Of a stretch of 64,000 nt of DNA, positions 4,697 to 52,210 are shown in pieces. Positions within the stretch are counted from its first letter, which is position 1, and the number at the start of each line of letters is the position of its first letter. The DNA is from Raillietiella orientalis. Taxonomy: Eukaryota. The notes under the pieces are model-generated. The model saw only the letters and a program-made list of their open reading frames with translations, ran no database searches and was not told where the DNA came from. The stretch spans positions 744,001 to 808,000 of the forward strand of contig JAYWIR010000036.1 in the NCBI GenBank assembly GCA_036172245.1, given 5' to 3'. Made by a program: the position numbers and the translations under genes.

Positions 4697-8409
<3,713 letters not shown>

Positions 8410-20280: not shown

Positions 20281-20292
20281 CTAACACTTAAT

Positions 20293-20810
20293 TCTCGATC
20301 CAAGGTAGTGGTCCCAGGGCCATTTGCAAACGCTTCTCCGCTCGTGCTGCGCTGCCGCCAGCCGCTTCCCTTGCATTGGTCTGATATTTTTGCAGGATTC
20401 TGGAGGAGTGGAATGGCAGAAAAAGAGGCCTAAATAAAGAGGACTATATCCACTGGGCCACAATCTTGAAGACCGCATCGAGATGGCTCCATCCGAGGGA
20501 GATACGGACAGAACTAGCAATCATGCCAAACAGGATACTGAGGACGCCTCCCAGAGCCTCCCGGTCCCCAGCTTTGGAGAGGGCCTTCCCTCTCCAAAGC
20601 AGAACTTTTCCTCTGGTTTTTCTCTTTTTTTGTTTATTTTTTTTCTTTCCGGTTTTCCCTTGCCCGTCTCTGAGGTCGGCTTCCACCTCGCCGGTCTATG
20701 TTCCCGTCACGCCTAATTCCGTACACGGTGAAGCCAAGTGTTTCACCAATCCTGAATATTTTTACTAGTATTTTATTATCATTTTGCGTAATAATAGTAA
20801 ATGCAAAACC
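20293..20810 (+). mobile_element. LINE lineage B copy 1 (5'-truncated 3' end)
   Basis: Translates to ..IHWATILKTASRWLHPREIRTELAIMPNRILRT, homologous to the C-terminus of ORF 45847-47040. Followed by a pyrimidine tract and hairpin GGTGAAG-CCAAGTG-TTTCACC (20727-20747). Confidence 0.8.
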
Positions 20811-20812
20811 AA

Positions 20813-23800
20813 TTAGGAAAGTTCTGTAGCATCTGCCGTTGTCGCCGCCTTCAAGACGATGGTCCTGCTTCCGTCTCCCTTTTCTCGATCCTCTCCCTTT
20901 TCCCCTGCTTCAGATCTCTTCAGTACGACGAGACGGGTCTGTTCCACGATTCCATTCCGCACTCCAGTTGTAACTTTCTTTGCATTGTCACTTTCCCCGT
21001 CAGAACACAAAAACTGCCGCGGCAGCGCTGTCTAGGCAGGGTATTGGGCAAAGTTTTCAACTAGCAATCATTACGCCTTAGCTTCCCTGCTTTCTCGAAT
21101 TCGACTCGCGATAGGGTAAATTTATGAACACACTCATGCATACCACCAATACACAAGCAGAAACAGAGCTGAATCACTGTTACGGCCTTCACGGGTACAA
21201 CAAGACACCGTCCTGGCAACCCTTCACCAAGCTCACCTTTCTGAGGCAATGCAGGAGAGACCAAGATGAAACTCTTCCGCACACCCGGATATTTATTTCC
21301 CTTTTCAGGAGTCCTGTTAGGATGTCCCGGGAATTCGAGATATGTCCTTGGGTAAGTTTTGCTTTTCTGATGAGGATGCTCCTCAGGAAGAAGGCGACGA
21401 ACAACCGCACGGTAGGACTGTATCGCGAAACGCCGTCTCCGCCTTCGAAAAGTCTTCGCAGGATTTTAAACGTTAACGCGTCCTCCATCTATACTGCCCG
21501 CCTCACTACTCTCCAATCCCGGACGAGGGTTCGGCAAGTGTAAATGTGCAGGTCGTCTTCTATCGACCCTCACTCGGGACACCGATCGTCGTCGCGGTTC
21601 CTTGTCTAGTGCTGGAACCTCGTGCCGCACTGGATGCCTCCGCAGTAGAGCATCGGGAGACCATCCTGGATGTGTGGCGGCAAGAAGGATCTACATAGGA
21701 CCGTACCGATCACCTGTGGGTAGAGGACAACGTTGCCCAGACTGCATCTCATCCTGTCGTCTTGCACTTGTCGTGCATGGATTACCACTCTCGTTGATTG
21801 TCTCTCGCATTCTTCCATGGTCATTTTCTTCTCTTCACTGACACATGCTGCTGTATCCCAAGAGACGCTGATAAACAGCGGGATCACCTTGATGAGTTCT
21901 TTGATTCACAGCACCTTGCTCTTCGGCACAATCTTCAACTTTAAGTTCCAAGGAGACGCTGGATTCCTGTCCACGTTGGATCTACTTTGTTCCAGTCGTC
22001 CGCGGTGAAGGCCATGGAGGACATGATGCCGTCAGTTCCGCGTAAGAATCTTGCGAAGGCGCGAGGGAACGCGAACGGCCACTCATCCCATGCGCTGACG
22101 ATCCGGACCAGGTTTCTGAGGGCCTGGAGCTACACGGTGTTAGCGATATCTCGCATGCCGGTAATTCCTTCCGTGTGCAGGCGACAAAGGTACTTCAACT
22201 GGGTCTTCTGCCGCTCCAGACAAGATTCCTCTGGATATCGGCTAGTTCTTTTGCCGTTCTTGAGAAAATCGTCAGGAACGACTCGGCGAAGAGAAACTTC
22301 TGTGCCATCACCTCGTTCCAGAGGTTGGCCTTGTCCTTTTGCGAGGAGTTCCGATGTATTGGCTGAATTCTTCGCGCAGCTTGGCCAGGATGGCCGACCA
22401 TTGCTGCAGCTCCAGGGATGGTGTTTCGTCGCCGATGCGTACCCCGAGGTACTTAACGTTGTCCGCAATCCGAAAGCCATGGGTGTGGAGGACGGTGACG
22501 TCTGGTATTCCCACGGCTAGCAGGTGGGATTTGTTAGGGTTCACCTTGAGTCCGTGGCCGTATTCCATAGCTTGAAGGATGTCCAGGAACACAGTCTGAT
22601 CCTGCTTGTCCGACATGACGAAAAGCAAGTCGTCGGCATAGACCAGGTACGTGATGTTGACTTCTTCTCCCAGGTTGATACCTTTGAGCCTGCTCTCTCG
22701 GTGAACGAAGGAGCTTACTGCCTCCATGTACAGAACAAAGAGCATGGGTCTCAAGGCGTCTCCCTGGCAGACTCTTCTCCCCCATTTGGATGTTCTGCGA
22801 AGTAAGCCCGTTGACGTCGATCGTAAAGTTGACCTCCTCCAAGGTGTGTGCCGCGTACTGGACGAATCTCCCTTTGAAGCCCAACTTCCCCGGAATCTTC
22901 AGCATAATGGCGTAATCCATCGCGTCGAAGGCCTTCTCAATGTCGGTGAGAACCCAGCACCAGGTCATCGCCCAGGATGCACTTGTATTCCAGGAGTGCC
23001 AGGGAGCAATTCAGGTTATCCCACATGCGTCTGCCTGGCATAGCACACGTCTGAGTAGGAGAAACCACCGACTTCAGAGATTTGTTCAGCCGATTGGCCC
23101 AGAGTTTTGACATCCACTTCGCGTTGAGTTCCAGATGAAGATGGACCTTCACTGGGTGAAGTTGCGGTGGTTCCCGCCACTCTTGGGAAGCAGCCTCATC
23201 CTGTTTCGGTGGAAGGAGGCGGACAGTCGTTCTTCTCTGCGGATGCAGTCTAGCAGCTGACGGAAAAGGTGCACCTAGGAAGACAGGTGCCTCTTGTACT
23301 GCGTGACGGGCACGCTTTTGGGACCCGCCGCCACGTTCTTGCGCAGTCCATCGAACGTCACTTTGACCTCGCCGTCTGTGAAGTCCTGATCCAAGTCGTG
23401 TAGTTCTTGGGAGGCCAGGCTCTTCACTTTGCGGAGAATCCGCTCCTGGCCTCCGGGGTCCAGATTCCTTCTTCTGAACAGTTCGGAGTAGTTCTGGAAG
23501 GCATCCAGTACTTGCTCCGAGCTTCGACAGTCCTTGTCCTGGTAACGGACGTGGAAGATGTCCGTCATGAGGTTTCGTTTCTCCAGCCGTCCGATTTCTT
23601 TCTTGACGCTCCTGTCGAGGAAGCGCCTCTGGTATTCTTCCCAGTACACAGAGTGGAAGAAGTGGAGTTGGTGGATTTCCCTGTACTCTTCCTCGCGGAG
23701 GTCCGGGTCACCGTATTGGAGGTTCGAGAAGGGATGCACGATGTGTTTAAAGGTGCCCCAGTCGTCCTCGCGCAGGATGTCGGTCATGGCCAAGCTGGTC

Positions 23801-26100
23801 TCCACGATGCGCTAGTACGGGGGGAAACGCTCGTACCACTCTGGCATGCAAATGAGCGCCTCCCGGGGCATTGCGTTTTCCTTCCTAAGATTCCTCGACG
23901 TCATTTTCAATGGAAGCAGAAGATGGTCCCAGATTCCAGTGTTGAGTTTTAGGATCCCCTGGATGCGATCAAGGAGAACCTCTGAATGCATGACGTGGTC
24001 GATGCGGGTCATGTTCCCCCCCTGCACAGGAGGGCGAGTTCGTCCTCCTTGTGCCGGTAGTTGGTGTCGGTGCCCGTCTCGTCGTGGCGAATGCCGTCCA
24101 GGAGTTGAAGTCGTCCGCTATCACGTTGACTTCGGAGTGACCTTGCTCTTCACCAACTCCACGAGGGCATTCGCGAAGGGTTTCTCGTTGAGCAGTGGTC
24201 CGTACACGTTCACCACGAAAAGATGTACGCTTCCGGACCACGCCATCCTCAGTCCCAAAACGCGACCTGCTCATCCGTGGAATATTTCCAGGACGGTTGA
24301 CGCTAGGGTCTGGTTCACAAGGATGGCGACGTCCTTGCGATTTCTCGAACCCTGGTTGACATGGATGTTCACTTGCAGATCCCTCGCAAGTTCTTCGCAA
24401 GTTTCCGGCGTCATGAAATTCATTTCCTGCAGGAAGCCGAGCAAGAGAGCCACTTCATTTACCTCCTTTTTGTCGGGTTCGCGCATTCGTTGATGTTCCA
24501 GGATGAGAACCCGATCTTTCGGATTGACGAAAGGGACTGAGCCATTTACGGACAGCTGGGTCGCTCGAGTTGATTCTTCTCTTTTTCTTGACAGCGGCGC
24601 CCTGATTTTCTGGGCGCGCATGTCCCTTCTGTTTTGGCTCCTTGTGTGTTGTACGGCTGCTATTTTCTCGTCAGGAATATCCTCTTCCGAGGTGTAGCAG
24701 CTCGTCGCTCTCTCTTCCCCTTCCGGGACTGCGGACGCCTCGGTGCTGTTCGGCTCCGCCGCCGGCAAACGTTCCTCTCTCTTTTTCTGGTCTGGAAGGA
24801 GGAGTGAAGTGAGGCTGATTCTCACGTACATCTGGTCTTCCAGATGATCGCCTCTTCCCTAAGGTGTTCCAGCAGATCTTTCGGCTGCTGGAATACCTGT
24901 CCCTTCTGCTCCTCATTAGGGATCTCTCTAATTGCGGAGTCCAGGCCATCGATTTTCGCCTGCAGCTCTTCGATCTCAGATTTCTGACCGATCTCCTTCG
25001 CGGAGGTCGTGGTGGCGGGTACTGTCTTGGCTGCGGGCTCTCCCTCAGTCGCGGTCTTCTCTCCCTTTGCGGGAGGTGTCTGTTCCAGGGATGGTTGGGT
25101 TTGCACCTCCACCTGTGTTCCGGCAGAGTGCAATGGACAAATCCAGACGAACAGTGATTTCTTCCGTGCCTAACCCTCCCCCTTTTAATTCCTGTTTTTT
25201 GTTTGTATTTGTTTGGCTTGCCTTCCTCATTGCCGTTGTAGAGGAACACACAGGTCTACGAACCAGTTTCCGGCAAGTCAACCGGAATAAGTAGAACCAA
25301 GTGTTCTACCATGATATCAATATCATTAACGACATTATTGAAAAAATTATTGTAGAAAAATCTTAATAATAAATGCACCAGCCAACCCGGGTGACAAATC
25401 TCGGAAAGGGCCAAGAATTCTCGACCCAACAGCAAATGCATCCCACCGCAATTCGGAACGGGATAAACTGGCAAGTCTCAGGGCTGCTGGATTCCTGCGG
25501 CGCGGTTGCTCTACTTGGCTCGCGTTGCTGGGTCGGAAGTCGCCTTCTTTTCTGACTTGGTAGCCAGGGGCGGGGAGGGCTCAGAAGGAGCAGCGGTCCT
25601 CGTGCAACCGTGCTGCTGCTGCTTAGTCAATTCGCGGGGACGGCGTCGGTCGGGGCTTTGCAGAGCACGACAGCGGTGCCACTATTCTCGACGGCGAAAG
25701 CTGCATCCTTTTGCTGGACCATGCGCGCCGCTGGAAGCGCGATCGGTCGCGCGCGGCTTCGCGGGCGAAAACGGCTTTCAACTCCGCTCCATTGCGGCAC
25801 TTTAGGGTTGCGCGTCTTCCAATTTCTTCGCTGCGTCTTTCCCGCGTGCGAGTTTTGGGGCTGCGTTTTTCCGTGCAAGTGCCGGCCGCTTCGGCAGATC
25901 GTGTGCTCCTTCCTCTCCATGTGGTCTTGTAGCCGAAAGGCACGCTTTCCGAAGATACCTCTCCTGGCAAGATTTTTTGCGCGCTGGACGCTTGCCTGCG
26001 TCCCAAAGGTGGACGACCGCGTCTTGCACGCGTAGCTTCGCAGGCAGTTGTGGGCGGTAGGAGCACGGGGAGTCGAACCGCGGACACTGCGCTGTGGATG
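20813..26100 (-). mobile_element. L1/Tx1-like non-LTR retrotransposon, lineage A copy 1, near full length but frameshifted
   Basis: In order: ORF1-like coiled-coil/CCHC remnant (24.8-25.9 kb); APE endonuclease (GFLQE, DDFN, RIDHV, WDH; 23.9-24.5 kb); RT (QTCAMPGR, DIEKAFD, LFVLYME, YADDL, YLGVRI; 22.3-23.3 kb); C-terminal region to 20813. The 5' boundary is approximate. Confidence 0.9.
25122..25398 (+). mobile_element. LINE lineage B copy 2, short 3' fragment nested antisense in lineage A ORF1
   Basis: RVQWTNPDEQ* (compare RMQRTNPGAQ*), pyrimidine tract, hairpin GTAGAAC-CAAGT-GTTCTAC (25291-25309), AATAAA 25368-25373, end CCCGGGTGACAAA. Confidence 0.85.
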
Positions 26101-26334
26101 GACGGACAGCCCTTGAGGTGTTCCGCCTCCCCCGACAGCGCGTCACGAATTTGTGACGAATTTCGCCATCGTGTTCGGATATTTCCGGTGCGAAACCTCC
26201 ACCACGAGCGACTCATCCAGAAGTATCCTTCTGTTTGGAATTCGTAAGTTTCCTTCATAGAAGTACAAGCAAACCTGTATATTTCATGTGCCACGAATGC
26301 CCATTTGCAGCTATCAGACACATCAGCTGTGGAG

Positions 26335-26379
26335 AAGCAGTTTACCGCTAAACACAAAGTGTTTAGCGGTAAACTGCTT
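26335..26379. repeat. Perfect 21-bp inverted repeat with 3-nt loop
   Basis: AAGCAGTTTACCGCTAAACAC-AAA-GTGTTTAGCGGTAAACTGCTT. Confidence 0.95.
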
Positions 26380-27900
26380 AGTGAAGAAAGGAGTGAAGAA
26401 AAGTGAAGAAATATCACAGCTCGAAGTTTGCAGCAAACTTTTCATCTCTTACAGAAGCTGGAAAACCCTGTGGGTACGGCTGTTGTTGGAATCTGGGTCG
26501 ATCCAGGAGGAGAAGTGATTGCAGGAAAGGGAGGAGATTATGAAGAATGAAAAAAAATTCGCCACTGTTGGTAGGATCTCGGAAGGGCGGTCAGCGTGCT
26601 GCACAAAGTTTAGTGGAAGGACTGACCCAAGTTTAGTGGGAGCCAAGGCACTGTGCATAAAATGTCTTCCCACTTCCGTTCGATGTTAGGTGGGGCTACT
26701 TGCAAGCTCGAAGAGCCGTGGCATTCGCAGTCACCAGGGCTGTGGCCTACCAAGCAGATGACAAGAACATCAAGAATGAAAAAGTAATTCCCTATGCCTT
26801 CCTTCCTGTCTTCTCCCAGGAGTATCAGGATCGCTTCCCAGAAATTGAATGACATTTGGAACCAGAAGAAGAGAACTGGGATCACGCGCACCATCGAGCG
26901 TGAGGGCATCATGTGTCTACAAGAGGCCCACGAACATCCTCAAAGGACTCGTGAAGAAGGAAATAAGGATCAGGAATCGTGGACGCATTCAGGACTTATC
27001 GTTACATCCTGCAAAGGACTGAGGAACTTACCGAAATGAGTGGAACCTCCACAAGGACTCATTGATCTTATTTCCTGAGCGTAACGAGCAAGTGACACTT
27101 TGTGACACTTAAAAGCGTCAGTAAAAGTGAAAGCGATTGATAGACTGTTGTACTGTTAACTGCTGTAATAATATTCTAACCTAACGTCATACAATAAATC
27201 CACCTCTTAGCGAGTCGGACTGGGATAACTGTGGCCTACCTCTCTTTCCATAGCTTTTCACGCCTCATGATTGCTGCCAGGATGCCGCATAGTTAGCAGC
27301 AGGCTACATCTACTTTCTCTGGAGTGGAGAATCTTTAGGGAAGAAACAAGCGCCTTGCAAGGTCTACAGAAATGTCGTTTGGATGTGAGCGGGCTGCCCA
27401 TCCTGACAGAAGCGCACCACACTGCAGCAAGAGGCGCGAGATCGTGTCGATCACACCTCAACTTAGACAGTCCATTCAGGAACTCATCACACACGGCTCC
27501 ACCGACGACGTCGTTGATAACACGGAGGTTCTCTCTTCAAAAACAGATGTTGTGTGATGGGGTGTGAGAGGAAGTAGGGAGCTGACCAAGATTGGAAGGA
27601 CCTCCCGTTCTACTAATGGAAACCCCTCAATGGTCTGCGCAATGTCCTAATCACACACGTTCGAGTTGGACGTGGAGTCTCCTAGCTGCCGTCCGCCAGG
27701 GATCTTCTCCGAGTCTGATCGCTAATGCAATCCTTGTCATTCGAGATGGGGCAAAACTCTTCTGGTCCGCTGTCTAGAAGCCGACCCCAGGTATCTATTA
27801 CTTTCGGCAGTCACATGTTATTTCGTGGCAGTGCAGGGGTATGTAACTATGTTGCTTCATGATGGAGACCAGCCGTCGTACCACAGCAGTTGTGCAATCG

Positions 27901-28450
27901 TTGCCACCCGGATATGCCAAGACGTTTATTCAAGTCATTAACAGAACGTGGTACAAGGCCCCACTAACTGCCAACACAACGCCGGACCTGCCGGGACGCC
28001 GGTTCGCAGACCAGAGTGACTCTCCTCGGCAGTGGACGGGGATGGGGGAAAAAACAAAAAGACAAATAAAACATAAAGGAAAAAAAAAGAATTGTTTGGA
28101 GGGCCGGAAAGAAATCACTGCTCACTGGGAGGTGGGTCCATCCTTCGCAGGATGCCGTCGAGGTCCTTCTGCAGCTCCAATTGTCTTGGTGTCCCGATTC
28201 CGAGACCGACGTCTCCACGTGGAGAGAAAATGTCCTTTGACCGAGCTTCCCCCACTGGAGTCCTAAGAGTTCTTCCGTAATAGAACAGCGGCCCCTTGCT
28301 TCGTCGTAAAGAAACAAAAAAACAATGGTGTTTAATGCTGCAGTCCATCCAGACACAGAGAACTTGTAGCCCACGAGAGGGCGATCGTCTCCTCTGCATT
28401 CCGTAGACAGCTGGATAAACGAGTCCTGTCCTCCAGAAGTGGCCCAAAGT
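27901..28450 (-). mobile_element. LINE lineage B copy 3 (3' end, possibly two tandem fragments)
   Basis: ..KDLDGILRRMDPPPSEQ* (stop at 28115), pyrimidine tract, GGTCTGCGAACCGG hairpin, end AATAAACGTCTTGGCATATCCGGGTGGCAA. Confidence 0.8.
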
Positions 28451-28469
28451 AGTAGATTCAGTTAGTTTT

Positions 28470-29010
28470 TCATTGTCAGCACAGAAGACGCGGAGGGTGG
28501 GAAGAGACGACAGGCCACATCACCAGCAGACTCGTCAGCCATGGTCGGTAGGCATGTGGGCAGGAGCGGCCCAGGTCAAAGAGTCCTACTCCGACACTCC
28601 GGAAGTTGACGTCAGTTCAGGCGACGCAGACCCGGACCGAATCCCAACCCAGACGCAGAGCTCCAGGGTGAAGTCACGCTGGACAACTCTGGCCCTTGCA
28701 AGTGCGGGAGTCGAATGGCGACGGAAGGCCGAGCTAGCTACAGGGACTGACTGGTCGCTTTGCCTCCGAAGAGGTGTCCGCGACCGCAAGAGCTATCTTC
28801 TCACGATCTCCGCGGTCCTGGCATCCAAGAGACGACGATGCCTCGGAAGAGCGGAGAGTTCCTCAGAAGCAAAGAGATGCTGTGCTCTTTCGAGCGTCCA
28901 GTATTCCCAGGATGTCCAGCATTCCGGAACGCAAAGGACGGGCCATCGCCCGGAAAGGAAGTCTTCGAAACGCAGCAAGAGTTGCGTGCAACAGCAAGGA
29001 GAGGAGGACG
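28470..29010 (-). mobile_element. Possible decayed APE endonuclease fragment of a LINE
   Basis: Fragments LDILGILD, VVQRDFT and PTDHG in the order expected for DILxxQE / GDFN / SDH. Degenerate. Confidence 0.3.
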
Positions 29011-31206
29011 GTAAATAAAACTTCTCTCTTCATCCGTCTGCACCTGCGTTCCGGAAGAGGAAATCGAAGTTTGGCAGTTGCAGTCCTGGAAGTTTCGTGT
29101 TCTGCAGCTGCATCCTGCATTCAGACTGCACCGCTCCCAGCTTTAACTGCTGCTTCCGTTCATCTTTTCTTGTGATTCGTGAGCGAATTTCATCAAAAAC
29201 CATCGTCTTAAGCGCGATCCATTTCGGCGATTTTGACCTGAATTGGAAGCAGCTGCGAACATCTGCATTGTAGCTGAATCTTAGGCGGCTGAATGAAGGC
29301 AAAATGCTGAAGCGTTTCTGGGAACTCAAGGAAGGGATCGGGTTGTTCGCGGACAGGAAGCCCAAACCGGTCTCTGGAATTTAGAAATTAAGATTGGTTT
29401 TGTGATGCAGCATTTCTCGCAGATGCTGCTGCTCATCAGAACTTAATCTTTGGACTTCAAGGTCCTGCTCATGTGATCAACTCTCTGTATCAAAGTATCA
29501 CAGTCTGTCAGACGAAACTTGATTGGTGTGGAAACCAGTTCCCTAACGACGAAGAAACACATTTCGCCACATTGCATTCAATATTTCAGCGTCTAATGTG
29601 AAAGGTGGGAAAAAATGTCAAAGTTAGAGAAGAGTTTGCAGACAAGTCTGGAGTTTTTTGAGAAATCAACGCAGAGTGGCACGTTTTTTCTTGTCCATTC
29701 TCAGTACAATCAGACACAGTTGCTCCCAATTTTCAGCTTGTGTAAATTATTTGACCAATAGACTTCGGTCTAACTTCGGCCCACCTCTACTAGCGTAATT
29801 TTTAAAAACCCGTCTTCCTATAGAAAGGTATCCTTTGAAATGCCTTGAAAAGAAATACTCTTTTCAAGCCGTATATCGATTTTCTCCAGAGTGACTACTG
29901 TACACCAAACAAATTGGTTTTGGATCGCAGATCAAGAATTGCCAAGATTCTTGGCATCCTCATTTGCTTACTCACAGTGTTGTGTTTATATGGACAAGCT
30001 TGCACAACAGAAAAAATGCAGAGCTTTCATCAAGATGCACTTCTAATCAGCCATATTAGAGAACAATCAATTAGTAAAAATTAACAATTCCCTTTTTAAA
30101 TTAGTTTTTGATTGTGCTACACTTTGATCTTAGCCAAAAGGCCGAGAAGCGATCTTTTGGTTGCTATATATCCTGCAGAGAAATATGATTCATACATAGA
30201 GATATATTTAAATTTCAAGTGATTCCAGTGATTTTTCAAGTATTTTTGCAACCATAAAAAAGTAAATCTTTTCCATCTATGTCTACATTTATCTACGCCG
30301 CTCGGGAGAAGCAAACTGTAGTAACGAAATTGAACAAAGTTAAAATTGGTTCCAACATAGAAATAACTGGTTACCCCGGTTTTATTTTAAATTGCAATCT
30401 TTTTGTTTCCCTTTTCAACTATCTTGTTTAATATCTCATTAATAATTGCTATGTAACAAAAGAAAACTATCTTTGTTTTATTTATTTTGTTTTGCGCCTT
30501 TCTTCGGCCCTGACAACTGGAGCAAGAGCGGCCTTACTCCAGTTAGGTAATGTAACTTGTCTTACCCGTCATCGTATTGGTGAAATCAAGAGCAAAAAAG
30601 ACCGAACATTACGAAACTGACCGTAGGAAATTTCAAGTTTTGAAAGTCGTTCGTTGCTGCGTTCAAAATAGTGATCTGCAGTATAATTCTTTACCATATC
30701 CAGCCAATTAGACAAAAAGGTCCTCAGGAATGATGTAGACTTTATTAACATGAAATTTAGCATTTCTACATTGAAACAAATCAGCTGCCTACTTGACAAG
30801 TGTATAAACAGAACAACATATTTGTCAGCAAAATACATTTGTGTCTCCACTGTTTGATCCACATTGCCATCAAAATATCTTGAATGTGCTTTCCAGTAGT
30901 TTGATCAGAATGCTGAAACCCATCCGTAAATTTCCACATTCCTTGATGCTCAAATGATAATAATCGATCAACAGATAAATAAGTGAATTGTACAGCATTT
31001 TGGAATTACATTTATTGAGATATATTAAAAATACACGACTTCCCTTATACAATGTATACTTATCTGCAGTTAAAAAGATCCAATTTAAGCATAAGATGTT
31101 TGGTAAATTTAATGTTCAAATGTAACAATTGAAATATTCCTTGAGAATTCCTTGGGAGTTCACATTTCTCCTACTTTTATACCTAGTTCCTGAACAATAT
31201 TAGTTG

Positions 31207-31785
31207 CTATGAAAATTGCTTCAGGAGATCTTGCATTTCTTTAGAAGAAGCCATATTGAGGAAAGTTTGTTTCTGTTGAGATAACAAGCTTTTCAAGGAG
31301 GGAGATATTTCTAACAACTTTTGAGCTAAATGAGCTTGGTTTTCTTTTACAGCTTTATGCAAGGCAGTCATTCCATCACTATCTACTAAAAATACATCTG
31401 CATTGTTCTCTAACAGTATGTCTACTATATTAGCATGACCTTGATGTATAGCTCTATGTAAAGGTGTAGAACCTCCATTTGTTTGTACATTAGGATTTGC
31501 ACCAGCTTTAAGTAATACTTCACAAACATTTAATTTACCATTTCTTGCAGCATAATGCAGAGCAGTGTAACCACTGCTGTCTTTTGCATTTGGATCCTTT
31601 CCTGATGCCAAGTAGTCACATACTTTTCCAATATCACCATCGATTGCTGTATAAAATCATAAAGCAACTTATCTGTACAATGAATCTTTATTACCAGCAG
31701 ACCATATACCTCTAGAAAAATCTAATTCACTTAAAGACTGCTGTGGACCATGAGCGCAACAACAAGTATGATTGTTTTTCTCCAT
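31207..31785 (-). CDS. ANKRD39: Ankyrin repeat domain-containing protein 39. Exons 31785-31695 and 31646-31207
   Basis: [35 protein letters not shown]...DSSGYTALHYAAR...GGSTPLHRA...DSDGMTALHKA. One 48-nt GT-AG intron. Confidence 0.92.
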
Positions 31786-42340: not shown

Positions 42341-42991
42341 GGCCTTGGAACAGCTTCGTGATCCCTTTCGACGTGTGCTGAACCTCAGTGGTGGAGATGT
42401 CGGTGACAAATGCTTTCCTTCTTTTATCTATCTATCCATCCATCTATCTATGCATCCTTCTGTGAGCTACCGGTTACCCGGCTTGTTTCGACCCGGATCG
42501 CGAAGCAGATGCTGGTGTTCTCGTGGTTCCGTCCATGGAATCTGTTAAGAACTGGGGGTGCATTCCTGCTTGACTCCCGAACCGGTCGAGGTGGTCAGTG
42601 GCGGTTCCCTCTTGCGCAGTTGTGGATGCGCGCTCACAAGATTCCTTGACAGTCGTCTCCACACCGTCCTCCTCCTCCTCCTCTCCGCGGGCAGCAGCAG
42701 CTCTTGCCCGAGCTCCTGCGAACGCATGCGTGGGGCCTCGGCGGGTTCTCGCGGCGCGGTGGGCGGAAGAGGATCCGGCTCTCCTAGCGACGAAGAACCC
42801 GATTCGAAGGAGAGCTGTTTCTATGGGGGTTCCCTCCACGCGGAAGGAACCCCCTTCCGATTTCGAGGGTGAACAGAGAGCCGCACTCGAGGTGCCTTGG
42901 AGGTGCGCGATGGACGCAGCGCCCCCCCTCCCCCCATCGTCGCTGCCGTCCAACCGATTGCTCTCGCAGATGCCGAAGGGGATTCGGGAGA

Positions 42992-44640
42992 TTTCCCACC
43001 CGGTCACTTCGGGCATTTCTTTCATAAAAAAGGAAACCAGTCGAGAATGCGCTGGTTCCCAACCGACGACCACAAAAAACAAAGGGGAGGGTACATCGAC
43101 ACGCAGACTGGGATTACGAAAAGTTCGGAACAGGGGAGGGGATCGGGGGACAACAACAACAAAAATAAAGCAAATCCGGTAGGATGGGAAAGGAATCTTT
43201 GAGTTGGCTCCGTGAGCACCGGGTTCAAAACAAAAAGCACCGGGGAAGTTTCGGAACGAAATGGGGGTGGGGAATGAGAAAGAAAAAAATAAAGGGAGAC
43301 AGAAGATAGAAGTCACCGGGGTCTGCCGTTCTTAGTTCTCCTCAAACCGGCGGTGGATGCCGGCAATCTCCGCCTTCGCTTCATCGTTCATGTGAGACCA
43401 CCTCGCAGCCGTCCTCATGTGGGAGGCTGCTATCCCGGTGACCTCCCATTGCGTCGTCGTCGTCTCCAGCACATGGCGGGCCGTGACGATGGAGCGATGC
43501 AACCCCGTGGTTGCGACCACCGCTCCCGTTGAGAGTCCTCCCGGAGTCGAAGAACCGTCGCAGCACATCTTGGGCGGTGTCCTCCCGGAGCAGGAGCGCT
43601 GACGCCAGCCCCCTCCGCAGTTTCTGGGGGAGCACCGCAGCCCAAAAGCAGGAGCGGCGGGATCGACTCCGCCGACCCACACCTGGCGCAGTTCGGGGAT
43701 GCAACCCCTGCGGGAACGAGGGTGCCTGCGCTCATTGCACCTCAATCTCCAGTGCAGGAAGAGTAGCACATCCTGTTTCTACGATAGCAGGAACACGGAA
43801 GCGTCCAACCAATGGGGAGGGACTTCGAGTTCTTCGGGGACAGGACTCAACAGTTCGCTCCACCGAAGGAGTCCCGTTGCCACAGCACACGGAATGGTAG
43901 ACCCTCCGCCAGCCTACGCGTCTTCCAGCAGCCAAGGAGTTTCGTCCTTTCCGCGATGGTGCAAGGAACTCTCACCTCGCCGGTTGGCCGCTGTCGTCTC
44001 TTGCCCTGTAGGATTTGGGAGCTGAGGCTGCCCACGGGTGCTCCTGCCGGCTCGCATCGGCGCCCTCCCTCAGTCCGAGGCAGGTCGGTCATCTGATCCC
44101 AGCAGTGCTGCCTCCGGATTCGCCGACTCGCGTGCATTCTAGGAGGTTCCTCCTGATGTTGAGGAGGAATGCTTCGCCCTTGTGCGACGGCGCCCATGAG
44201 ACCTCGCCGATCCTAAACGGTGTGCGCCTCCTCCCCCTATTTCGTCCTCTGTACTCGGCGTCGAGGGGTCTGCGGTCTCGAATGTGTTGTCCACTTCCGT
44301 AACGTGAATCCAACTGCTCGTGCCTTGTGAGCTCCGGAAGTTCCCTCTCTGCCCCCTTCGACGCATCCGGAATGACCTCCGTCGAGCGACTGCACCAGGT
44401 TTGCCTGCTTCCTCCTTGGCATTATCGCAGGAAGTCCTGCTTTACGGACACCGCGGTCTTTTCCCGTCAGTTCAGGACGACTCGATCTCCGAGTCCACGG
44501 GTCCTTCTGCTGCACCAGGATCTGTTTCGGGTGGCAATTCGGAGTTCGTTCTTCTATTTTTCCTATTCCTGGATGCTCTTCGTGAACATCCGTGCATCCT
44601 TTGCACCAATCACTTCCACCTCTCCCTCTCCATCGATGTG
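42992..44640 (-). mobile_element. LINE lineage B copy 4 (post-RT region plus 3' module)
   Basis: LLFLHWRL, CARCGSAESI..C (zf-RVT-like) and HMRTAARWSHMNDEAKAEIAGIHRR; end AAAGAAATGCCCGAAGTGACCGGGTGGGAAA. Confidence 0.75.
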
Positions 44641-45357
44641 ATTTCATTTCTGTATTGTTCGTCTACGTTCTGACTTAACGTCATTAAAAATAATCAAGGT
44701 ACATTATGCAGTCACTGGAACATTATGATACTGGAACACTAAACCCATCTAGATCCTTGGCAAGTTTCAAGTGGCTGCACAGTACATAGATATTTCGTTT
44801 GGCATCCTTTTCAGTTTCAAGCCATGGACAATACATGCAATCAACCTTCACAGGATTTGAATCTGAATCCTCCAACTGAAAACAAGGCCTCACATATACA
44901 GATGCTGCTCTAGACTTGAATTCATAGAATACAGATGACCTATTTTGATGCTAAGTTAAATTATTCCAGATGCTACCGTATTGATTCTCATCAAGAGTAT
45001 GAGACCCAACCGATTAATTAATTCAACATTTTTCCCATTTGATGCCTCGTATGACCTACAACAGCGTCCTAGATAAGTAGAGAAAAACAGGCCTCGGCTC
45101 ATAGAGACATCCTAAATGTTTAGATTATTAACAAATAATAATCAATGTCCCATAATATAGCGAGGAATATTTGAGCTGAATAGTAAAATAAGTCTTCCCA
45201 AAGCCTAAAGAAAAAATGGCTTTGTAGCGTATAATATTTTTATATTGCAATTAACGTAGGTTAGAATATTCGTTGGCATCATGCAAAGAAGGGGGCGTCG
45301 ATTGATTGGTTGTGCTGCCGTACAATGAAGATGGTTGAATGATGAATTGTGGGAAAA

Positions 45358-45594
45358 CAGGTAGTACTGGAGTTAACGACGGGTTTCCGTGCCAACGTCG
45401 TTGCTCCGTCTTCCCCTCCGCCACTGGAGCGGACCTCACCGGTCTTTGGCAAGTCCCTCCGCTCGTGGTAGAACCAACTGTTCCACCACGACATAAAAAA
45501 AAATTACGACTTTATTATAAAAATTTTTAAATAATAAATGCCCCGGCAAATCCGTGTCACAAACAAACGTCTCCGTCGCAAATCGGTTCTGACG
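45358..45594. mobile_element. pogo/Tigger-type terminal and subterminal sequence, interrupted by lineage B copy 5
   Basis: CAGGTAGTACTGGAGTTAACGACGGGTTTCCGT resembles the TIR at 50240-50259. CGGTTCTGACG (45584-45594) is the exact reverse complement of CGTCAGAACCG (49038-49048) in the Tigger subterminal region. Confidence 0.55.
45400..45563 (+). mobile_element. LINE lineage B copy 5 (3' module only)
   Basis: GGACCTCACCGGTCT, hairpin GTGGTAGAAC-CAACT-GTTCCACCAC (45465-45489), AATAAA 45533-45538, end CCCCGGCAAATCCGTGTCACAAA. Confidence 0.8.
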
Positions 45595-47845
45595 TTTGTC
45601 ACCCGGATATGCCGGGGTATTTACTAATCTAATTAATATAAAATTAGTTAATAAAGTCAATTGATATGTTTTTGTGGGAAAACACTTGGTTTTCCCACGC
45701 TGGCAGACGTGTCGGGAGCCGGTGCCGACACCGGCTAGGTCCTTTCCCGAGGCGCAGGGGAAGGGGAAACTGAAACAAAAAGAAACAAAAAGAGAAATAA
45801 CGGGGAGGGAAACAGTTATATGGGGGAGTGGGGGGCAGGGAAGGGATCACTGGGCGCCTGGGTTGGTCCTCTGCATCCTGTTCAGGATGCAGTCAAGCTC
45901 TGCTTTTACTGTGGGAGGTAGACGCCATCTTGTCGCCGTCTCCAAAGAGATCGTCGTCCAGTGGATGGCGTCCCTGCATCTTGGGCCTCTTCTTCTGGCG
46001 TGCCACCTTTGCACGATGCCGCGCACGCAGCAGAGGACTGCTAGAGACGCAGCGGGGCGCAGGCCGTCACGCAGAAAGAGGCGACGGTAAATTTCCTTAG
46101 GGTCGCCTACTGGAAGATGGAGGATTGGGGCGATTCGACTCCAGAGTCCATCCAGGGCGACACACTCGAGGGTGAGATGCGGGAAGGTTTCTCTTTCTCC
46201 GCACTCGACACAGCAGGCATCCACATTTCCCAGTGTCCAGTGAGACAGGCGTGCTCTGCTTAACAGTCCCCAGTGCAGAAATAGAAACGCCGTCTCCTGC
46301 CACTTTAACGGAAGGGTGCCGCAATCCCAACACGCTGGGGGCCACTTCACCTCCTCCGGAGGTATAGCGAGCAGCTCTCCCCAGCGCGCAAGTCCGTGAG
46401 GCGGGACGCTCGGGGTGGCAGCGTCCGCTAGCTCCCGAGTCGTCCACGCCTTTAAAGGTTTTCTCCTGCCTCGGATGAGGCAGGACACTTCCCACGATGC
46501 TCCCTCGTTGCTGCTCCTAATGTTCTTCAGGGAGGACAGTACGGCGGCAAGGGGGCTGAAAGAAGCCCACAGAAACTTCCGGGGCGTGTTGATAATATCC
46601 TGCAGCAGCTGTCGAGCGTACGGTCCTTGATGTAGGCAGTTGTATTCCACCTCGCTCGTGCCGTTGATCTTAGCCCACGCGGAGACTGACTCCTGAAGCC
46701 AGGCAGTGCAGTTCGCGGGGAGGCAGGAGATCCAGGTATTCTCCCTCATCAGGGCGACCATCTGGCGCAGATGAAAGCCACAGTTGTTGCTGAGGCTGCG
46801 CTGGTAGGCCACGAGGATCGAGGACAATCCTTCGCAGCCGGTCGCTCTTCTGGCGAGGAGCCGTGTCGGTTCGCACCATGGCGTCATCCATAAGCTAGCC
46901 GCAAGGGCTAGCTTCCGAAAGTTGATTTGTTTTTCCATGCGCTCCATAGTCAGGAGGCCCAAACCACCGTCCCTGCGTGGAGCGCACAAGTCTTTCAATC
47001 GGACTCGCGACCTCGCTGTGCCCCAAAGGGCAGTGCTCAAGAGGGCTTTGGTCCGTCTCTATATGATTGGGGGGGCGGAGCAAACAAAAAGTAAGGGGCG
47101 AAGGAGTGGGGCCGCGAACGCGTTCCACACTGCGGCCCGCTCCTGCAAGTAAAACTTGCCGTTCCGGAACGGGTCGATCGCCAACTCCACCTTTTGGAGA
47201 CGGTCGGAACAGGCTCTTGCAACGCAGAAGTCCTCCAACGGAACGCCAAGGTACTTCAAGCACCTGCCCGTGGGGATACCCAAGCGGATCCAGTCCGGCC
47301 GTCCGGCCCACGCCGTATTGTGAAAAAGCAGTGGTGATGTTGGAACAATTGAAGATTTTTCTCTGTTCACCTCGAGGCCCGGCCTGCGGCGCAGCAACTC
47401 AAAGAAATCTTCCAGCGCCGACGCCGGGGTGGACCCGGGGAGCAGGAGCAGAAGGTCATCGGCGTACGCCGACACGGCAGGCGTGCCAAGACACGAGCTC
47501 GGCAGGGTTGCCAGAGTCTCCCTGTATGCCCTCAGCACCAGCTCGAAGTAGATGCTGAAGAGCAAGGGGCTCAGACTGTCACCCTGCCTTATGCCACGAC
47601 GAACCGGCACGCCGTACACGTGCCGGTCGCTAAAAGTGATGTTAATCAGCGCGAAGCGCCAGCAGGAGCGCAGGTAAGCCCGGAAGACGGCCGGGAATCC
47701 CAAGCGTTCCAGAAGCTCCAGGAGGAGTTGCTTGTCGACGCAGTCGAACGCTTTACGCAGATCGACTGCGACCGCAAGGGCTCCGGGCGCCGCTTCACCT
47801 CTTCGGCTTCCCTCCCCCCGATCAGTGGAGAGTCCAAAACTTGAC
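45595..47845 (-). mobile_element. LINE lineage B copy 6: RT motifs 3-7 plus zf-RVT, one in-frame stop, complete 3' module
   Basis: AVDLRKAFD, GIRQGDSLSPLLFSIY, AYADD, KYLGVP, DGGLGL, CVECGERETFPHLTLEC. ORFs 47059-47922 and 45847-47040 are in the same frame, separated by one TAG at 47059-47061. Confidence 0.93.
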
Positions 47846-48186
47846 GACGCGGGATCGTCGCTGCTTGGAGTAAAGCAGCGGAAGGATCCAGAGGCAGGGA
47901 TGCCATCCACTTCGCCGTCCAATTCATCAGGATAGCAACGCGATGGCCCTACTTGGAAAACGACATCCAGAAAGATCTTACCGACATCCCTTCCCGCACC
48001 CCCTAAAGTGTATTTATTTTTTTTGTTTGCTCCCTTCCCTCTGCTGCCGTGGCGGACCGCGCCGGTCTAAGACCCGGCGACCCGGCCCAGGTCTCCATGA
48101 AATTGCGCGTGGCTAGACCACTGGTCCAACCACAGCTCTTGTTATATGTTTGTTTTAGTAATAACACCCCGGCGCACCGGGTGAAA
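47846..48186 (+). mobile_element. LINE lineage B copy 7 (3' end), head-to-head with copy 6
   Basis: RGIVAAWSKAAEGSRGRDAIHFAVQFIRIATRWPYLENDIQKDLTDI; CGCCGG-TCTAAGAC-CCGGCG hairpin; end AATAACACCCCGGCGCACCGGGTGAAA. Confidence 0.85.
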
Positions 48187-49048
48187 GCTCGACTTACGGC
48201 GGTTCGCACTTACGACGGCCGATCCTCTAACTCAACCAAAGCATCCAGAACATAGGAATTTCATGGAAGGAAGTATCAGAACAATCATGCGAGGAACCCG
48301 GAAGAAGTTACTGCCATTGCAGACACTCCAGGAACGACATGGTATGTTAGAACAAACTGAGGAGGAGATCATATAAAAATTGCAAGAGAGCTGGATCTAG
48401 AAATCAATGCTACCGACATAGAAGAATTAGGGAAGCACGATCAAGACTTAATTTCCAAAACGAAAGAGCTAAAGAAGAAGGAATCAATGAATGAGAAAGG
48501 TGGAAAAGAGAAGTGGTTAAAAAAAAAAATACTATAAAAGGATTAGCTGAAGTATTTTCTAAGCGAAATCAGGGAATTCTGCTAATCGAAAATATTTAGC
48601 AAGAGACACTGATGGCTTTGCCAAAGTCGAAAAGTAAATCCGGGAAGCAATTAGACGTTACCGTCACGAAATATATGGCGAGAAAAGAAAAACACCAACG
48701 GACAACACAAACTAATTTTTCGATGAAAAAAGCGGCTCCCGGTTGGGAAGAATAATGATATCGTTCAAATTAAAAAATCATTTCATTAAACACCGTTAAT
48801 AAGTTTTTTGGTGTGTGTTTGCCCCATTTTCGATATGTGTGTATGTATTTTTTTCTTAAATTTATCTTTCTTAATTTCATACTTATGTATTTACATATAT
48901 ACTAATAAATAATTTATAAATGTTTGTGTAAGTGTATACATTTTTTTAACCATTTTAAGTTAATTAAAAACCTGTCATGAAAATGCTATAATAGAAATAA
49001 AAACAAATCAATAACGAAAAGAAGCAGCCCCGACTTACGTCAGAACCG

Positions 49049-49179
49049 GGAGGTCAGACACAAGCACAGGGAGGTCAAGAGAATCCTGGATTCTCCTCTG
49101 ACCAGGAAGGGGACGCCCTTGATGGAAGAGCCGCGCCCGGAGACCTTGAGGTCGCAGTCGATCTGCGTAAAGCGTTCGA
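49049..49179 (+). mobile_element. Short lineage B RT fragment
   Basis: PGFSSDQEGDALDGRAAPGDLEVAVDLRKAF matches FGLSTDRGEGSRRGEAAPGALAVAVDLRKAF of copy 6. Confidence 0.8.
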
Positions 49180-50238
49180 TTTTCACCCGGATTTCTCCGG
49201 GTCGTTTATTAAAAAATAAACTTTACAGTAAAAATGTCAGTGGCTGTAGCAATGCTGCAGCCAAGCACGAAGAACCACGGAGCCTGCCAGGTCACCGGTT
49301 CGCAGACCGGTACGGTCCACCAAGGCAGCAGGGGAAGGGGGAAAAACAAAAAAACTAAACAAAAAGAAAAAAAGAGTGGGAGGGTACGGGAAGGGATCAC
49401 TGTTGCTGCTGGGGCCGCATCATCCTTCTCAGGATGCCGGCAAGCTCTTGCTGCATTTGAGGATCCATCGCGACATCCTCCTCAGGAATTGGGAGGCGCA
49501 CTGGATGGCATCCTGATCGCTTGGTCCTCCCTTTGCCGTGCTCCATGCGGCGACGATCCCGCGAAGGCAGCACAAGGCCTCTATCGAGGCCTCTGGCCGA
49601 AGGGCGTCGGCAACGAAGAGGGGTTTCAATGCATCCCTGGAGTTGCCTTCTGGGATTTCAAGGACCGCGGCAATCCCGGAGGAGCCGGAGGGCAACACAG
49701 TACACTACCCCGCACCTGACACAGTTCGGATCCACACACCCCAGCGTCCAGTGGTGACGTGGGTGTTGCGTGGGAGACCCCAATGTAGCACCAACAACGC
49801 CTACTGCAGCCACTTCAAGGGGAGAGTGCGGGTGTCCATGAGCACCGGGGGCCACTTCAGATGTTCCAACAGAACTTCCAGCAGCTCGTTCCAGCGCGAG
49901 AGTCCGTGGGGCGGTGAACTCGGGGTCGCAGCGCCGGTGAGCTGGTCCGTCTTCCACTCACCCAGTCCTTTGTCCCTTCCGGAGATCATTGCTTTAACTT
50001 CCTATTTCTCCAGGATGCTGTTGCTCAGGTGTTCCCCAAGGGAGGGCAGCGCTGCGGCAAGGAAAGTTGTTCCTGCCCACGCGCTTTTTCTGGGATCCTC
50101 CAGGATCTCTCGGAGCGTGCAACGGTTATTGCGCATGAACAGGAACCTGAGCACCTGCTCCGTTCGTTGCTTCTGGCTCCTCGCCCAGGTGCGAACAGTT
50201 TCCTGGAGCCAGACACTACCGTTCACGAGGAGGAATCG
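49180..50238 (-). mobile_element. LINE lineage B copy 8 (post-RT region plus 3' module)
   Basis: WLQETVRTW, PPHGLSRWNELL, TLPLKW, CVRCG, LCCLRGIVAAW; CAGTGATCCCTT; end AATAAACGACCCGGAGAAATCCGGGTGAAAA. Confidence 0.88.
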
Positions 50239-51559
50239 CCGTAAGTCGGAGACCACCTGTAAATGAAACATAGGATTAATGCTTGGGGTCTGCCTCCCCT
50301 CGGACTGATGGAGTCCACTGGGGCATCCAGAGCCTGCCGTAGAATTCCGCGGGCACAGGGATCACGTGAAAACATCAGGTTCATCTCAGATGTCAGCTTC
50401 CGTCTTTCCCTCCGAGTGCTCCTCCCTCCTTTCGCTCGAATTGAGGATTTCGTGCCGACTGGGCGGATCCTTCCGTTCACGACAAACGGATTCTGGGGTG
50501 GGAGGTCGAGTTCTCTCCGCTAGCCACCGGTTACGAGTGGACCGTGTGCACTCTGGGTCTGCGGTCTTCTTGAACGTGCCAGCATGTGCGGTTAGCCGGT
50601 GCCTTCTTGTGGGGAAAAGCTCGTTTTGCATTCTGGTTTGCTGCGTTCGAGTGCTAATGGTAGATCGGCTTGCACACGTGATTGGAGTACTTCCGGCCTG
50701 CAATGTGATGTGCCCACACTTTGCACGCGTGCGCTTCTTTGCTGCATTCATTCGATATGCGATTTCCGCCTTTGGACCTGACCGCTCACCTCTGTGAGCT
50801 CTGAAACGAAACGGCAGATTTCAAACAGGCAGGTCAGCGGCGGCGGCAACTGCTGAAGGCATGTCGGATATCTCTACTGAAGTGAAACCTCCTCTCCGTT
50901 TTCCATCTATTTCCATCGAATACTTCCGTTGTGTCTTTTCTCTCGGTTGCCCCGTTCTCTCTGCCCCCGATTCTCTCCAGAGAGGTGAAAGGTCCTCTCC
51001 TCTGGCTTTTCTCGAAATGTTGGAACGTCAGTCCAGACATACGTCAGCCTACACGGGACAGAGCAATCCAAGAAGGCTACGGCACAATTTTCAGTCCCTC
51101 TTCCTCTTGCCGTTGGCCTGCTGGTGTTGGTTCCAAACTTCAAACAATCAAAATGCCGAAAGATAAAAAATAAATAAAAATTAAATATCCACGTTTATTA
51201 TATAGATCAATGTATATTTTATAGATTAATTTGCATTTGTGTAGATTAATGTGTATTTACATAGATTAATATTTATTTTTTAATATACATTAATAAATAT
51301 TTTGGATATTATAAAAACAAATATATATTCATGTATACAATAAATATGTATTAAATAATCATATAAATATCTAATTATAAAAAATCATGGCAAGTATCTA
51401 AAACGGTGGGGAAAAATTAAAAAGCAGGCAGATTAAAAAAAGGAAAAAGAAATTTGGTATTTCATTTTTCAACGCTCAGTAAATGAAACTTCCTCAACAA
51501 TCGATGGATTCTATTTTCGAAGTTTTGATCGTTTGGTAAATATATATGTTTATAAAAAC

Positions 51560-52180
51560 AATAAAAACTCAATTCAATTGAAAAAACACAATTTAAAACA
51601 CAATTAAATTAAATTCCTCTGGTGAACCGCTTGGTTCACCACGTCATTGCAGCTGGTCAGCCCTTGGTCTGTAGACCGTCGAGGTCCGTTTCCGCGGCGA
51701 AGGGGGAGGGAAGAACACAAACGAAACGAAGCAAAAAAAAAATGGGAAAAAGGGGGAGGGCGGAAAAGGGATCACTTGTCGCCTGGCTACGTCCTCTGCA
51801 TCCTTTCCAGGATTCTGACAAGTTGTTGCAGTCCTTTGTTTCCCAAGTGGGACCATCTCCATGCTGTCTTAAGAAAGATCCGCCCACAGTGGATGGAGTC
51901 CCTGCCATTCCGCCCTCTCCTTGTCCGTTCCAGCATGCCACGGTTCCACGTACACAGCAGCAAAGAACTGCTAGGGCCCGCGGCTGGAGGGAGATCAGTA
52001 CGCCGGAGGAGGAGTCGGAAAATGCCCCTTGGTTCACTCGCCAGTTTTCCTAGGAAAGGAAGGATCATCGAGAGACGGATCCAAAGGGGTCGAAGGGCAA
52101 AACCGTCTACGAATAAGTGCGGGAAGGTCTCTTTGTCGCTGCACCTTTCACAACGGGCATCGACGCGCCCCCGTGTAGGG
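51560..52180 (-). mobile_element. LINE lineage B copy 9 (zf-RVT to 3' UTR; terminal hairpin not seen)
   Basis: CERCSDKETFPHLFVD, LAVLCCCVRG, FLKTAWRWSHL..ILERMQRT*; hairpin TGGTGAACC-AAGC-GGTTCACCA (51620-51641). Confidence 0.83.
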
Positions 52181-52210
52181 ACACGGGGGAGCGTCGATGC
52201 CCCCGTGTAG
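52155..52210. repeat. Fold-back palindrome plus short direct duplication at the 5' truncation of copy 9
   Basis: 22-bp arms (52155-52176 and 52181-52202) with one mismatch; CCCCCGTGTAG is repeated directly. Confidence 0.9.

Follow-up and report, generated by a model that had tools for sequence, protein, structure and literature searches.

Do the dead retrotransposon copies in one stretch of the genome of Raillietiella orientalis (GCA_036172245.1, contig JAYWIR010000036.1, positions 744,001 to 808,000; these 64 kb are called the window, and positions are counted from its first letter) descend from a long interspersed nuclear element (LINE) whose reverse transcriptase (RT) picked its template by the 3' end of its own RNA? 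L1-clade elements are the textbook 'relaxed' LINEs, which copy any polyadenylated RNA. An earlier note on this DNA had described nine diverged copies of an L1/Tx1-like LINE with a structured tail, and had treated L1-type elements as lacking such a 3' structure. My reading, which I hold as somewhat more probable than otherwise, is that nine dead copies truncated at the 5' end have piled up in this region, that they stem from several old subfamilies of one L1-superfamily LINE lineage of the apurinic/apyrimidinic-endonuclease (APE) type, and that template choice in this lineage was stringent.

Results

All nine 3' ends that had been announced, near 20810 (+), 25398 (+), 27901 (-), 42992 (-), 45563 (+), 45595 (-), 48186 (+), 49180 (-) and 51600 (-), were found there, and the copies are named by these numbers (c20810 and so on). 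Searched with an nhmmer profile of the nine tails, the window yields these nine places (E <= 3.8e-26) and no other below E = 4.2, so there is no tenth copy in it; as a proof of membership this search is circular, the profile having been built from the same nine tails. Pairwise likeness among the copies amounts to 68-81% over local matches, which makes them old and diverged. There are about three tail types, with c42992 standing apart: c20810 and c51600 have no terminal GC hairpin, c25398, c45563 and c45595 share a CAAGT-type loop and a long AT spacer, and c27901, c48186 and c49180 have a different and weaker second hairpin.

Reading and aligning the nine tails bears out the ordered module of the earlier description, in which individual parts vary or are absent by copy. 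The open reading frame (ORF) ends at a stop codon in a CAGTGAT(C/T)(C/T)CTT context, which is followed by a pyrimidine tract of about 75-100 nt and a core, GGACC-N3-CCGGTCT; then come the second hairpin (hairpin 2), an AT-rich spacer, a hexamer (AATAAA, AGTAAA, AATAAC or AAGAAA), the terminal hairpin CCCGG-loop-CCGGG and TGA(C)AAA. With at most two mismatches, the core GGACCNNNCCGGTCT has 13 matches against 2.5 expected, a count that none of 100 shuffles reaches, and seven of the 13 are copy cores. The stop context CAGTGATCCCTTCCC, with at most three mismatches, is matched 11 times (1.7 expected), six of them at copies, and the exact motif CCCGG-N4-6-CCGGG four times (0.09 expected), three of them at copy ends. 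The fourth of these last matches (52695-52708) lies in unrelated GC-rich DNA.

The conservation of these parts differs along the element. Mean pairwise identity over the last 120 nt of the ORF is 0.57, near the 0.50 of random sequences put through the same aligner; it is 0.65-0.69 in the 17-nt core (random, 0.43) and 0.65 in the terminal 36 nt of the seven hairpin-bearing copies (random, 0.47), and the spacer, at 0.41, does not stand out. By these alignments the 3' end of the nine copies is conserved beyond the rest of the element, which is one of the marks of a stringent LINE. As for the end itself, seven of the eight copies in which it is definable have their hexamer 20-25 nt ahead of the final base, and no end has more than four A, the A run being 2-4 nt (ends read GTGACAAA, GTGAAAA, GTGAAA, GTGGGAAA or GTGGCAA), so that the absence of long poly(A) noted earlier holds. 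A distance of 20-25 nt is also the usual one between a polyadenylation signal and its cleavage site. In three copies the hexamer is predicted to pair within an AU-rich hairpin (pair probability 0.91-0.97), which carries little weight in AT-rich sequence.

A second mark of stringent LINEs is a 3' stem-loop with compensatory changes. The five arm pairs that had been quoted for hairpin 2 are each present once, in the copies they were assigned to; stems and loops are given in Table 1. In c20810, c25398, c45595 and c51600 the distance from GGTCT to the start of the stem is 29-33 nt; the offset scan takes uninterrupted stems and did not pick that of c45563 with its one mismatch, so this offset is a measurement on four copies out of five. 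In the A3 alignment made with MAFFT, hairpin 2 has 78% of its cells paired and double changes at four of its ten pairs; of 500 shuffles, 13 and 23 do as well, and pairing with slid partners is 56% at most. The count on A3 is conservative, because a one-base loop difference shifts the 3' arm of c51600 out of register. A comparison by hand shows a switch from A-U to G-C or from U-A to G-C, or the reverse, at three stem positions, and both partners of the single mismatched pair of c45563 are missing in c51600. Taken one by one against mononucleotide shuffles, the stems of c45595 and c51600 are clear (1 and 22 of 1000 shuffles as good). At the same place c48186 and c49180 have a 25-nt triloop hairpin with one swap of C-G to G-C; by itself it is not distinct from shuffles.

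When a covariance model of hairpin 2 is run over the window with filters off, nothing comes up but the five hairpins it was trained on; the model gives 38 and 34 bits on the sense strand versus 17 and 19 bits on the antisense strand. G.U pairs occur on the sense strand in hairpin 2 of c20810, twice in the terminal hairpin of c27901 and, in seven of eight copies, as the basal pair of the core helix; together with the higher sense scores, they point to RNA rather than DNA structure.

The other two helices behave differently, and the 'covarying multi-hairpin' module of the earlier note therefore survives for hairpin 2, with its changes on both sides, but not for the core and terminal helices. In the core helix GGACC/GGUCU 87.5% of the cells pair, no pair is changed on both sides, and every one of 500 shuffles reaches the same level; in the terminal helix the figure is 88.6%, double changes are again absent, and two substitutions of C by U retain G.U pairs. 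Compensatory change in a 3' stem-loop can thus be regarded as reasonably supported for hairpin 2 only, in a small sample. Compared with dinucleotide shuffles, five of the nine tails fold clearly better (z-scores of -2.95 to -4.46). By eye, four copies show a long-range stem, [C/T]TGCC(G)/(C)GGCA[G/A], round the core, which is out of register in the MAFFT alignment and is mentioned as a lead only.

No Rfam family matches the tails. The Rfam gathering scan of the whole window gives a U2-like match only and none on tails, and scans by E-value of 20200-28400 and 42900-52200 give nothing on tails below E 0.39. Self-cleaving ribozymes were considered and dropped, there being no Rfam match to the tails, as was a triple-helix (ENE) structure, for which there is no Rfam match either and the U-rich tract is, by eye, a single run without the flanking stems of an ENE. 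The pattern GGACCNNNCCGGTCT-N95-125-CCGGGTG occurs at 15 loci in viral contigs and at least 120 in prokaryote genomes, all of it GC-rich bacterial or viral DNA, and the tail profile gives no nhmmer match below E 0.07 over 136 loci (these and one metagenomic locus described below).

The protein gives the class of the element. The second ORF (ORF2) of c45595 is open from RT to stop except for one TAG. Pfam finds RVT_1 at 47059-48066 (-) with E 4.5e-17 and at 22308-22898 (-) with E 3.5e-13; zf-RVT is matched with E 1.3e-5 and 26.2 bits, 1.3 bits under the Pfam cut-off of 27.5, and the zinc motif itself, CVECGERETFPHLTLEC (CX2CX7HX4C, of the CCHC type), is readable in the best copy. An APE domain was found in the window neither by Pfam at E <= 10 nor by tblastn with eight relatives as queries, most of them full-length and APE-bearing, because every copy is truncated or decayed. 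Against 1.84 billion representative proteins HMMER gives 7094 matches at E <= 0.001, two of them at E <= 1e-30. The close relatives are two short metagenomic fragments: P0001, listed from a JGI source, is 64% identical, and P0216, a fragment of 132 aa, 81% over 85 residues. Among the matches listed, full-length relatives reach about 31% identity at most and a few others 32-36% over short stretches, confined to the RT, and the C-terminal ~330 residues of ORF2 have no detectable relative beyond P0001 and P0216, the zinc motif excepted.

Twelve full-length relatives (1139-1280 aa), chosen from the top 30 of the best 150 of the 7094 matches, have an N-terminal APE in ten cases and zf-RVT in five. 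The best named matches in word-based searches are plant L1-type proteins of 25-31% identity, and phmmer against the PDB gives R2Bm at 1.3e-14 and human L1 ORF2p at 3.3e-12, which does not separate L1 from R2. The APE+RT(+zf-RVT) layout of the nearest full-length relatives supports the L1 superfamily. A metagenome scan with the C-terminal 403 aa produced 27 pattern matches and no relatives; one with the alignment of the ORF and P0001 produced 241 pattern matches and a single locus, L001, 36% identical over 76 residues, on a contig of 2602 bp that ends before any 3' untranslated region (UTR). In sum, RVT_1, the zinc motif and the APE+RT relatives make it well supported that the nine copies belong to an L1-superfamily LINE lineage, which is the part of the 'L1/Tx1-like' label that stands; the Tx1 part is unsupported, as the 3' flanks differ.

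Positions and neighbours

Table 1. Parts of the nine copies and other features of the window, with z-scores of the tail folds
Feature	Position	Strand	Upstream part or description	Core	Hairpin 2	Hexamer, terminal hairpin, end	Fold z
XPA	134-478	-	host gene, Pfam domain				
Lon protease	5100-5967	-	host gene, Pfam domain				
IFT52	12981-13370	+	host gene, Pfam domain				
RNase H ORF	13659-14177	+	mobile-element remnant, E 2.1e-17				
c20810	20397..20823	+	ORF2 tail 20397-20558; pyrimidine tract		20727-20747, 8 pairs incl. one G.U, loop CAAGT	AT spacer; AGTAAA; no terminal GC hairpin	-1.63
U4-like	20994-21117	-	similar to U4 small nuclear RNA				
Distant LINE	21186-23430	-	RT 22308-22898; CAGTGATT stop ~21186				
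c25398	25125..25398	+	~275 bp, 5'-truncated; stop TGA 25155-25157		25291-25309, 7 pairs, loop CAAGT	AATAAA; end CCGGGTGACAAA 25387-25398	-2.99
Palindrome	26332-26382		near-perfect, ~50 nt				
c27901	27901..28519	-	ORF tail decayed; stop TGA 28115-28117; pyrimidine tract	GGTCTGCGAACCGG	27948-27964, weak	AATAAA; CUUGG-CAUAU-CCGGG, two G.U pairs; GTGGCAA	+0.26
U2-like	29995-30153	-	similar to U2 small nuclear RNA; gene or pseudogene				
Ankyrin exon	31210-31656	-	further host gene, Pfam				
c42992, most diverged	42993..43874	-	ORF remnant 43728-43874; pyrimidine tract long, doubled			AAGAAA; CCCG-loop-CGGG; GTGGGAAA	-0.49
c45563	45411..45565	+	155-bp 5'-truncated tail; start inside pyrimidine tract		45465-45489, 11 of 12 positions paired, one mismatch, loop CAACT	AATAAA; CCCGG-CAAAT-CCGTG; GTCACAAACA	-3.29
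c45595, best kept	45596..47781	-	ORF2 RT to stop 45850-47778, in-frame TAG 47059-47061; stop TGA 45847-45849; 3' UTR ~250 nt	GGACCTAGCCGGTGT 45728-45742	45674-45698, 10 pairs, loop CAAGT	AGTAAA; CCCGG-CATAT-CCGGG 45602-45616; GTGACAAA	-4.46
c48186	47848..48186	+	5'-truncated, stop lost	GGACCGCGCCGGTCT 48054-48068	variant 48109-48133, 9 of 11 positions paired, loop ACT	AATAAC; CCCGG-CGCA-CCGGG 48168-48181; GTGAAA	-0.94
c49180	49180..50358	-	ORF2 decayed, 49459-50358, 38% identical to best copy; stop TGA 49397-49399	GGACCGTACCGGTCT 49304-49318	variant 49240-49264, 9 of 10 positions paired, loop ATT	AATAAA; CCCGG-AGAAAT-CCGGG 49186-49201; GTGAAAA	-3.07
c51600	51549..52176	-	ORF2 tail with CCHC remnant 51775-52176; stop TGA 51772-51774	GGACCTCGACGGTCT 51673-51687	51620-51641, 9 pairs, loop AAGC, then AT-rich	no terminal GC hairpin; true end uncertain	-2.95
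Mariner-type	53206-53670	-	weak transposase fragment, E 1.7e-4				

The copies lie in GC-rich transposon debris, which takes up roughly 14-30 kb and 38-64 kb of the window; the host genes are AT-rich. Mitochondrial Lon proteins of arthropods and vertebrates match the Lon exon at 66-70% identity and no species is closer, which points to an animal host from a sparsely sampled group. The 3' flank of c49180 is the antisense RT of another copy, which makes it a nested insertion. Members of different subfamilies, c45563 and c45595 stand tail to tail with 30 bp between them, so that their terminal hairpins and AT spacers make a large imperfect palindrome; it has a weak microRNA-like Rfam match (45527-45632, E 0.43), and the 30-bp gap has 7-nt inverted ends.

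Other mobile-element remnants are the ORF with an RNase H domain and the mariner-type fragment. The distant LINE belongs to a second family: its RT is 33% identical to P0001, it has the CAGTGATT stop context in common with the nine copies, and the tail module is absent. About 70 nt 3' of its stop, in the same orientation, lies the U4-like sequence (28 bits in Rfam for a gathering score of 46; E 0.00017 on 501 nt), in which the central U4 region and an Sm-like site are well preserved; the two could be a chimeric retrocopy of LINE and small nuclear RNA (snRNA) or chance neighbours. The U2-like sequence scores 46.2 for a gathering score of 46: its initial 37 nt are a perfect U2 5' end, and the branch-point-binding stretch and the remainder are diverged or missing. 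The palindrome at 26332-26382, within GC-rich repeat DNA, is mir-299-like on both strands, its 34 and 32 bits falling far short of the gathering score (67).

Discussion

The simplest course of events would be as follows. The element RNA would be made by RNA polymerase II and cut about 20-25 nt past the AAUAAA-type hexamer, right behind the small GC hairpin, where it would presumably be polyadenylated. Reverse transcription would then start at the first poly(A) residues or at the UTR end itself, and new copies would so end in ...CCGGGUGA(C)AAA with 2-4 A only; a start at this point would mean that long A tracts are never copied. The ORF2 protein would find its start by binding conserved parts of its own 3' UTR, putatively the core (GGACC-N3-CCGGUCU), hairpin 2 with its CAAGU loop and the GC hairpin at the end. 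This would be 'stringent' template choice, as known from elements of the L2, CR1 and R1 clades and from certain L1-clade LINEs of plants and algae. It is plausible that the RT recognises the structure of the tail. The sequence features are real, and a stringent mechanism is in my judgement their most likely explanation, if by no means a secure one, since it is inferred from nine dead copies. More tentatively, and as a possibility rather than an expectation, these copies may represent an animal L1-superfamily lineage in which template choice is guided by structure, poly(A) is not needed and the start is fixed behind the terminal GC hairpin.

Several observations weigh against stringent choice. 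The conserved hexamer, the hairpin and the CA/A-run may be nothing more than common signals for processing of the 3' end, and without a both-sided change the core and terminal helices may be kept as sequence, for instance as protein or processing sites, and not as structure. The terminal GC hairpin is absent in two copies, c20810 and c51600. RNAalifold over eight tails gives almost no consensus fold (-0.49 kcal/mol, 3 pairs), four of the nine tails fold no better than shuffles (Table 1), and the hairpin 2 stems of c20810 and c25398, matched by 63 and 91 of 1000 shuffles, are not clear individually. With nine copies and no second copy of any subfamily, change in the active lineage is inseparable from decay after insertion. 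A partner SINE (short interspersed nuclear element) with the same tail was not found in the window by nhmmer, by the covariance model with filters off or by ARAGORN.

The main rival, which I consider unlikely though deserving of attention, holds that the tail parts serve the messenger RNA (mRNA), in cleavage and polyadenylation, export, stability or translation, and that priming occurred on poly(A) as in L1, the short A runs coming from priming near the junction of UTR and poly(A) or from later loss of A tracts. The hexamer at the usual cleavage spacing in seven of eight copies, its predicted pairing in three and the conservation of terminal and core helices in sequence only are what one may cite in its favour. 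However, the seven definable ends all have 2-4 A despite their very different age and family, whereas the decay of long tails would be expected to leave A-rich stretches that differ in length, and hairpin 2, 60-100 nt upstream of the hexamer, retains its pairing through double changes that processing signals do not need. That the tail has no function at all, its order and motifs being leftover ancestry of decayed copies and its hairpins chance palindromes, seems quite improbable: it can draw on the missing consensus fold, on the four tails with z between -1.6 and +0.3 and on the very few sequences, but the core and terminal motifs stand out next to an ORF end that is near random (0.57 vs 0.50), the motif counts are far above shuffles, and five stems of 7-11 pairs have a near-constant CAAGT-type loop, four of them at a measured 29-33 nt after GGTCT.

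Two further alternatives concern the kind of element, and I hold both to be highly improbable. Copies c25398 and c45563 had been put forward as SINE-like, that is, as a SINE borrowing the LINE tail, and they are indeed short (~275 and ~155 bp) and nearly all tail. Yet both turn out to be ordinary, strongly 5'-truncated LINE copies with ORF or tract remnants and no tRNA head. The former retains the last ~10 codons of ORF2, ..RVQWTNPDEQ (cf. ..RMQRTNPGAQ in the best copy), and the stop, while the latter has its 5' end within the pyrimidine tract and an imperfect direct repeat, a target-site duplication, on its two sides: AACGTCGTTGCTCCGTC (45394-45410) and AACGTCTCCGTC (45566-45577). An apparent target-site repeat of c25398, GACAAATC, was rejected, its upstream copy lying inside ORF codons (WTNPD). 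ARAGORN finds no tRNA gene or tRNA-like head in the window, Rfam has no 5S or 7SL match beside either copy, and the two are just 69% alike over 108 nt; strong 5' truncation is, besides, the norm for LINEs. The other alternative is a target-specific element of the Tx1 type. Some Tx1-group families target snRNA genes, and U2-like and U4-like sequences do lie in the same pile of transposable elements, but none of the nine copies adjoins either of them. The 200-nt 3' flanks of eight copies have only words of 9-12 nt in common (E 0.014-0.88), except that the flanks of the tail-to-tail pair c45563/c45595 run into each other's tails, and one flank is the antisense RT of another LINE; the flanks being unrelated, there is no sign of a common target site, and Tx1 is unsupported.

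Comparison with known systems

If the stringent reading is true, the copies are of interest beyond this locus. In the portion of the literature searched, the exceptions with a specific 3' handle come from monocots and one green alga only, and no animal L1 or Tx1 lineage of this kind turned up there, which is a weak negative. Such an element in an animal would be relevant to the question whether specific recognition is ancestral for the whole L1 superfamily, would extend Ohshima's model of a stringent ancestor of L1 from green plants into Metazoa, and would provide a compact L1-type RT whose RNA handle is defined, a natural pair of RT and RNA for studies of template choice. For now the result is an annotation of dead copies at the level of a family, in which one hairpin is reasonably well supported; its interest to transposon specialists is moderate.

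The L2-clade elements of the UnaL2/ZfL2 type end in short tandem repeats used for slippage. As far as the consulted part of PMC4176376 goes, eel UnaL2 and zebrafish ZfL2-1/2 resemble the present copies in having a 3' stem-loop near the end with a conserved loop and a variable stem; this stem-loop is bound by the ORF2 protein and needed for mobility. They belong to another clade, and binding is experimental there, whereas here it is suggested by sequence comparison.

The closest counterparts are the stringent L1-clade LINEs of Ohshima (2012; PMC3472496), and the copies described here appear to fit this kind of LINE, already known from plants and green algae. In the monocot elements conservation is far higher at the 3' end than elsewhere, and the stem-loop of this end has compensatory mutations with the letters of loop and flank fixed; the monocot group round LINE1-1_ZM is linked with ZmSINE2/3, and the Chlamydomonas element L1-1_CR has its tail in common with SINEX-3_CR. 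In green algae many L1 families have terminal repeats other than A, or no such repeats, and a stringent ancestor was proposed for plant L1s (PMC3472496). The 2013 review PMC3747384, in the part used, takes the same view and counts only three known SINE partners for more than 800 L1-clade entries. Shared with these monocot and Chlamydomonas elements is an L1-clade ORF2; shared with the monocot ones are the argument from 3'-end conservation, with a milder contrast here, and a stem that varies with compensatory changes, RT recognition being deduced from sequence in both cases. The differences are that the hosts are plants and a green alga there and an animal here; that the named examples of PMC3472496 end in poly(A) and each have a partner SINE, whereas the present copies end in 2-4 A and have no SINE in the window; and that one element of ~45 nt there contrasts with several motifs over ~150 nt here.

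Human L1, finally, resembles these copies in the order of APE, RT and Cys motifs (seen here in the nearest full-length relatives), in an AATAAA-type hexamer near the end and in frequent 5' truncation. Unlike the 2-4 A found here, its poly(A) is long and required for mobility (PMC3472496). A conserved 3' stem-loop has been proposed, and only proposed, even for human L1 in the part of PMC5135761 (Grechishnikova and Poptsova 2016) drawn on here, and with it and PMC3472496 the premise of L1-type elements without a 3' structure has become dated.

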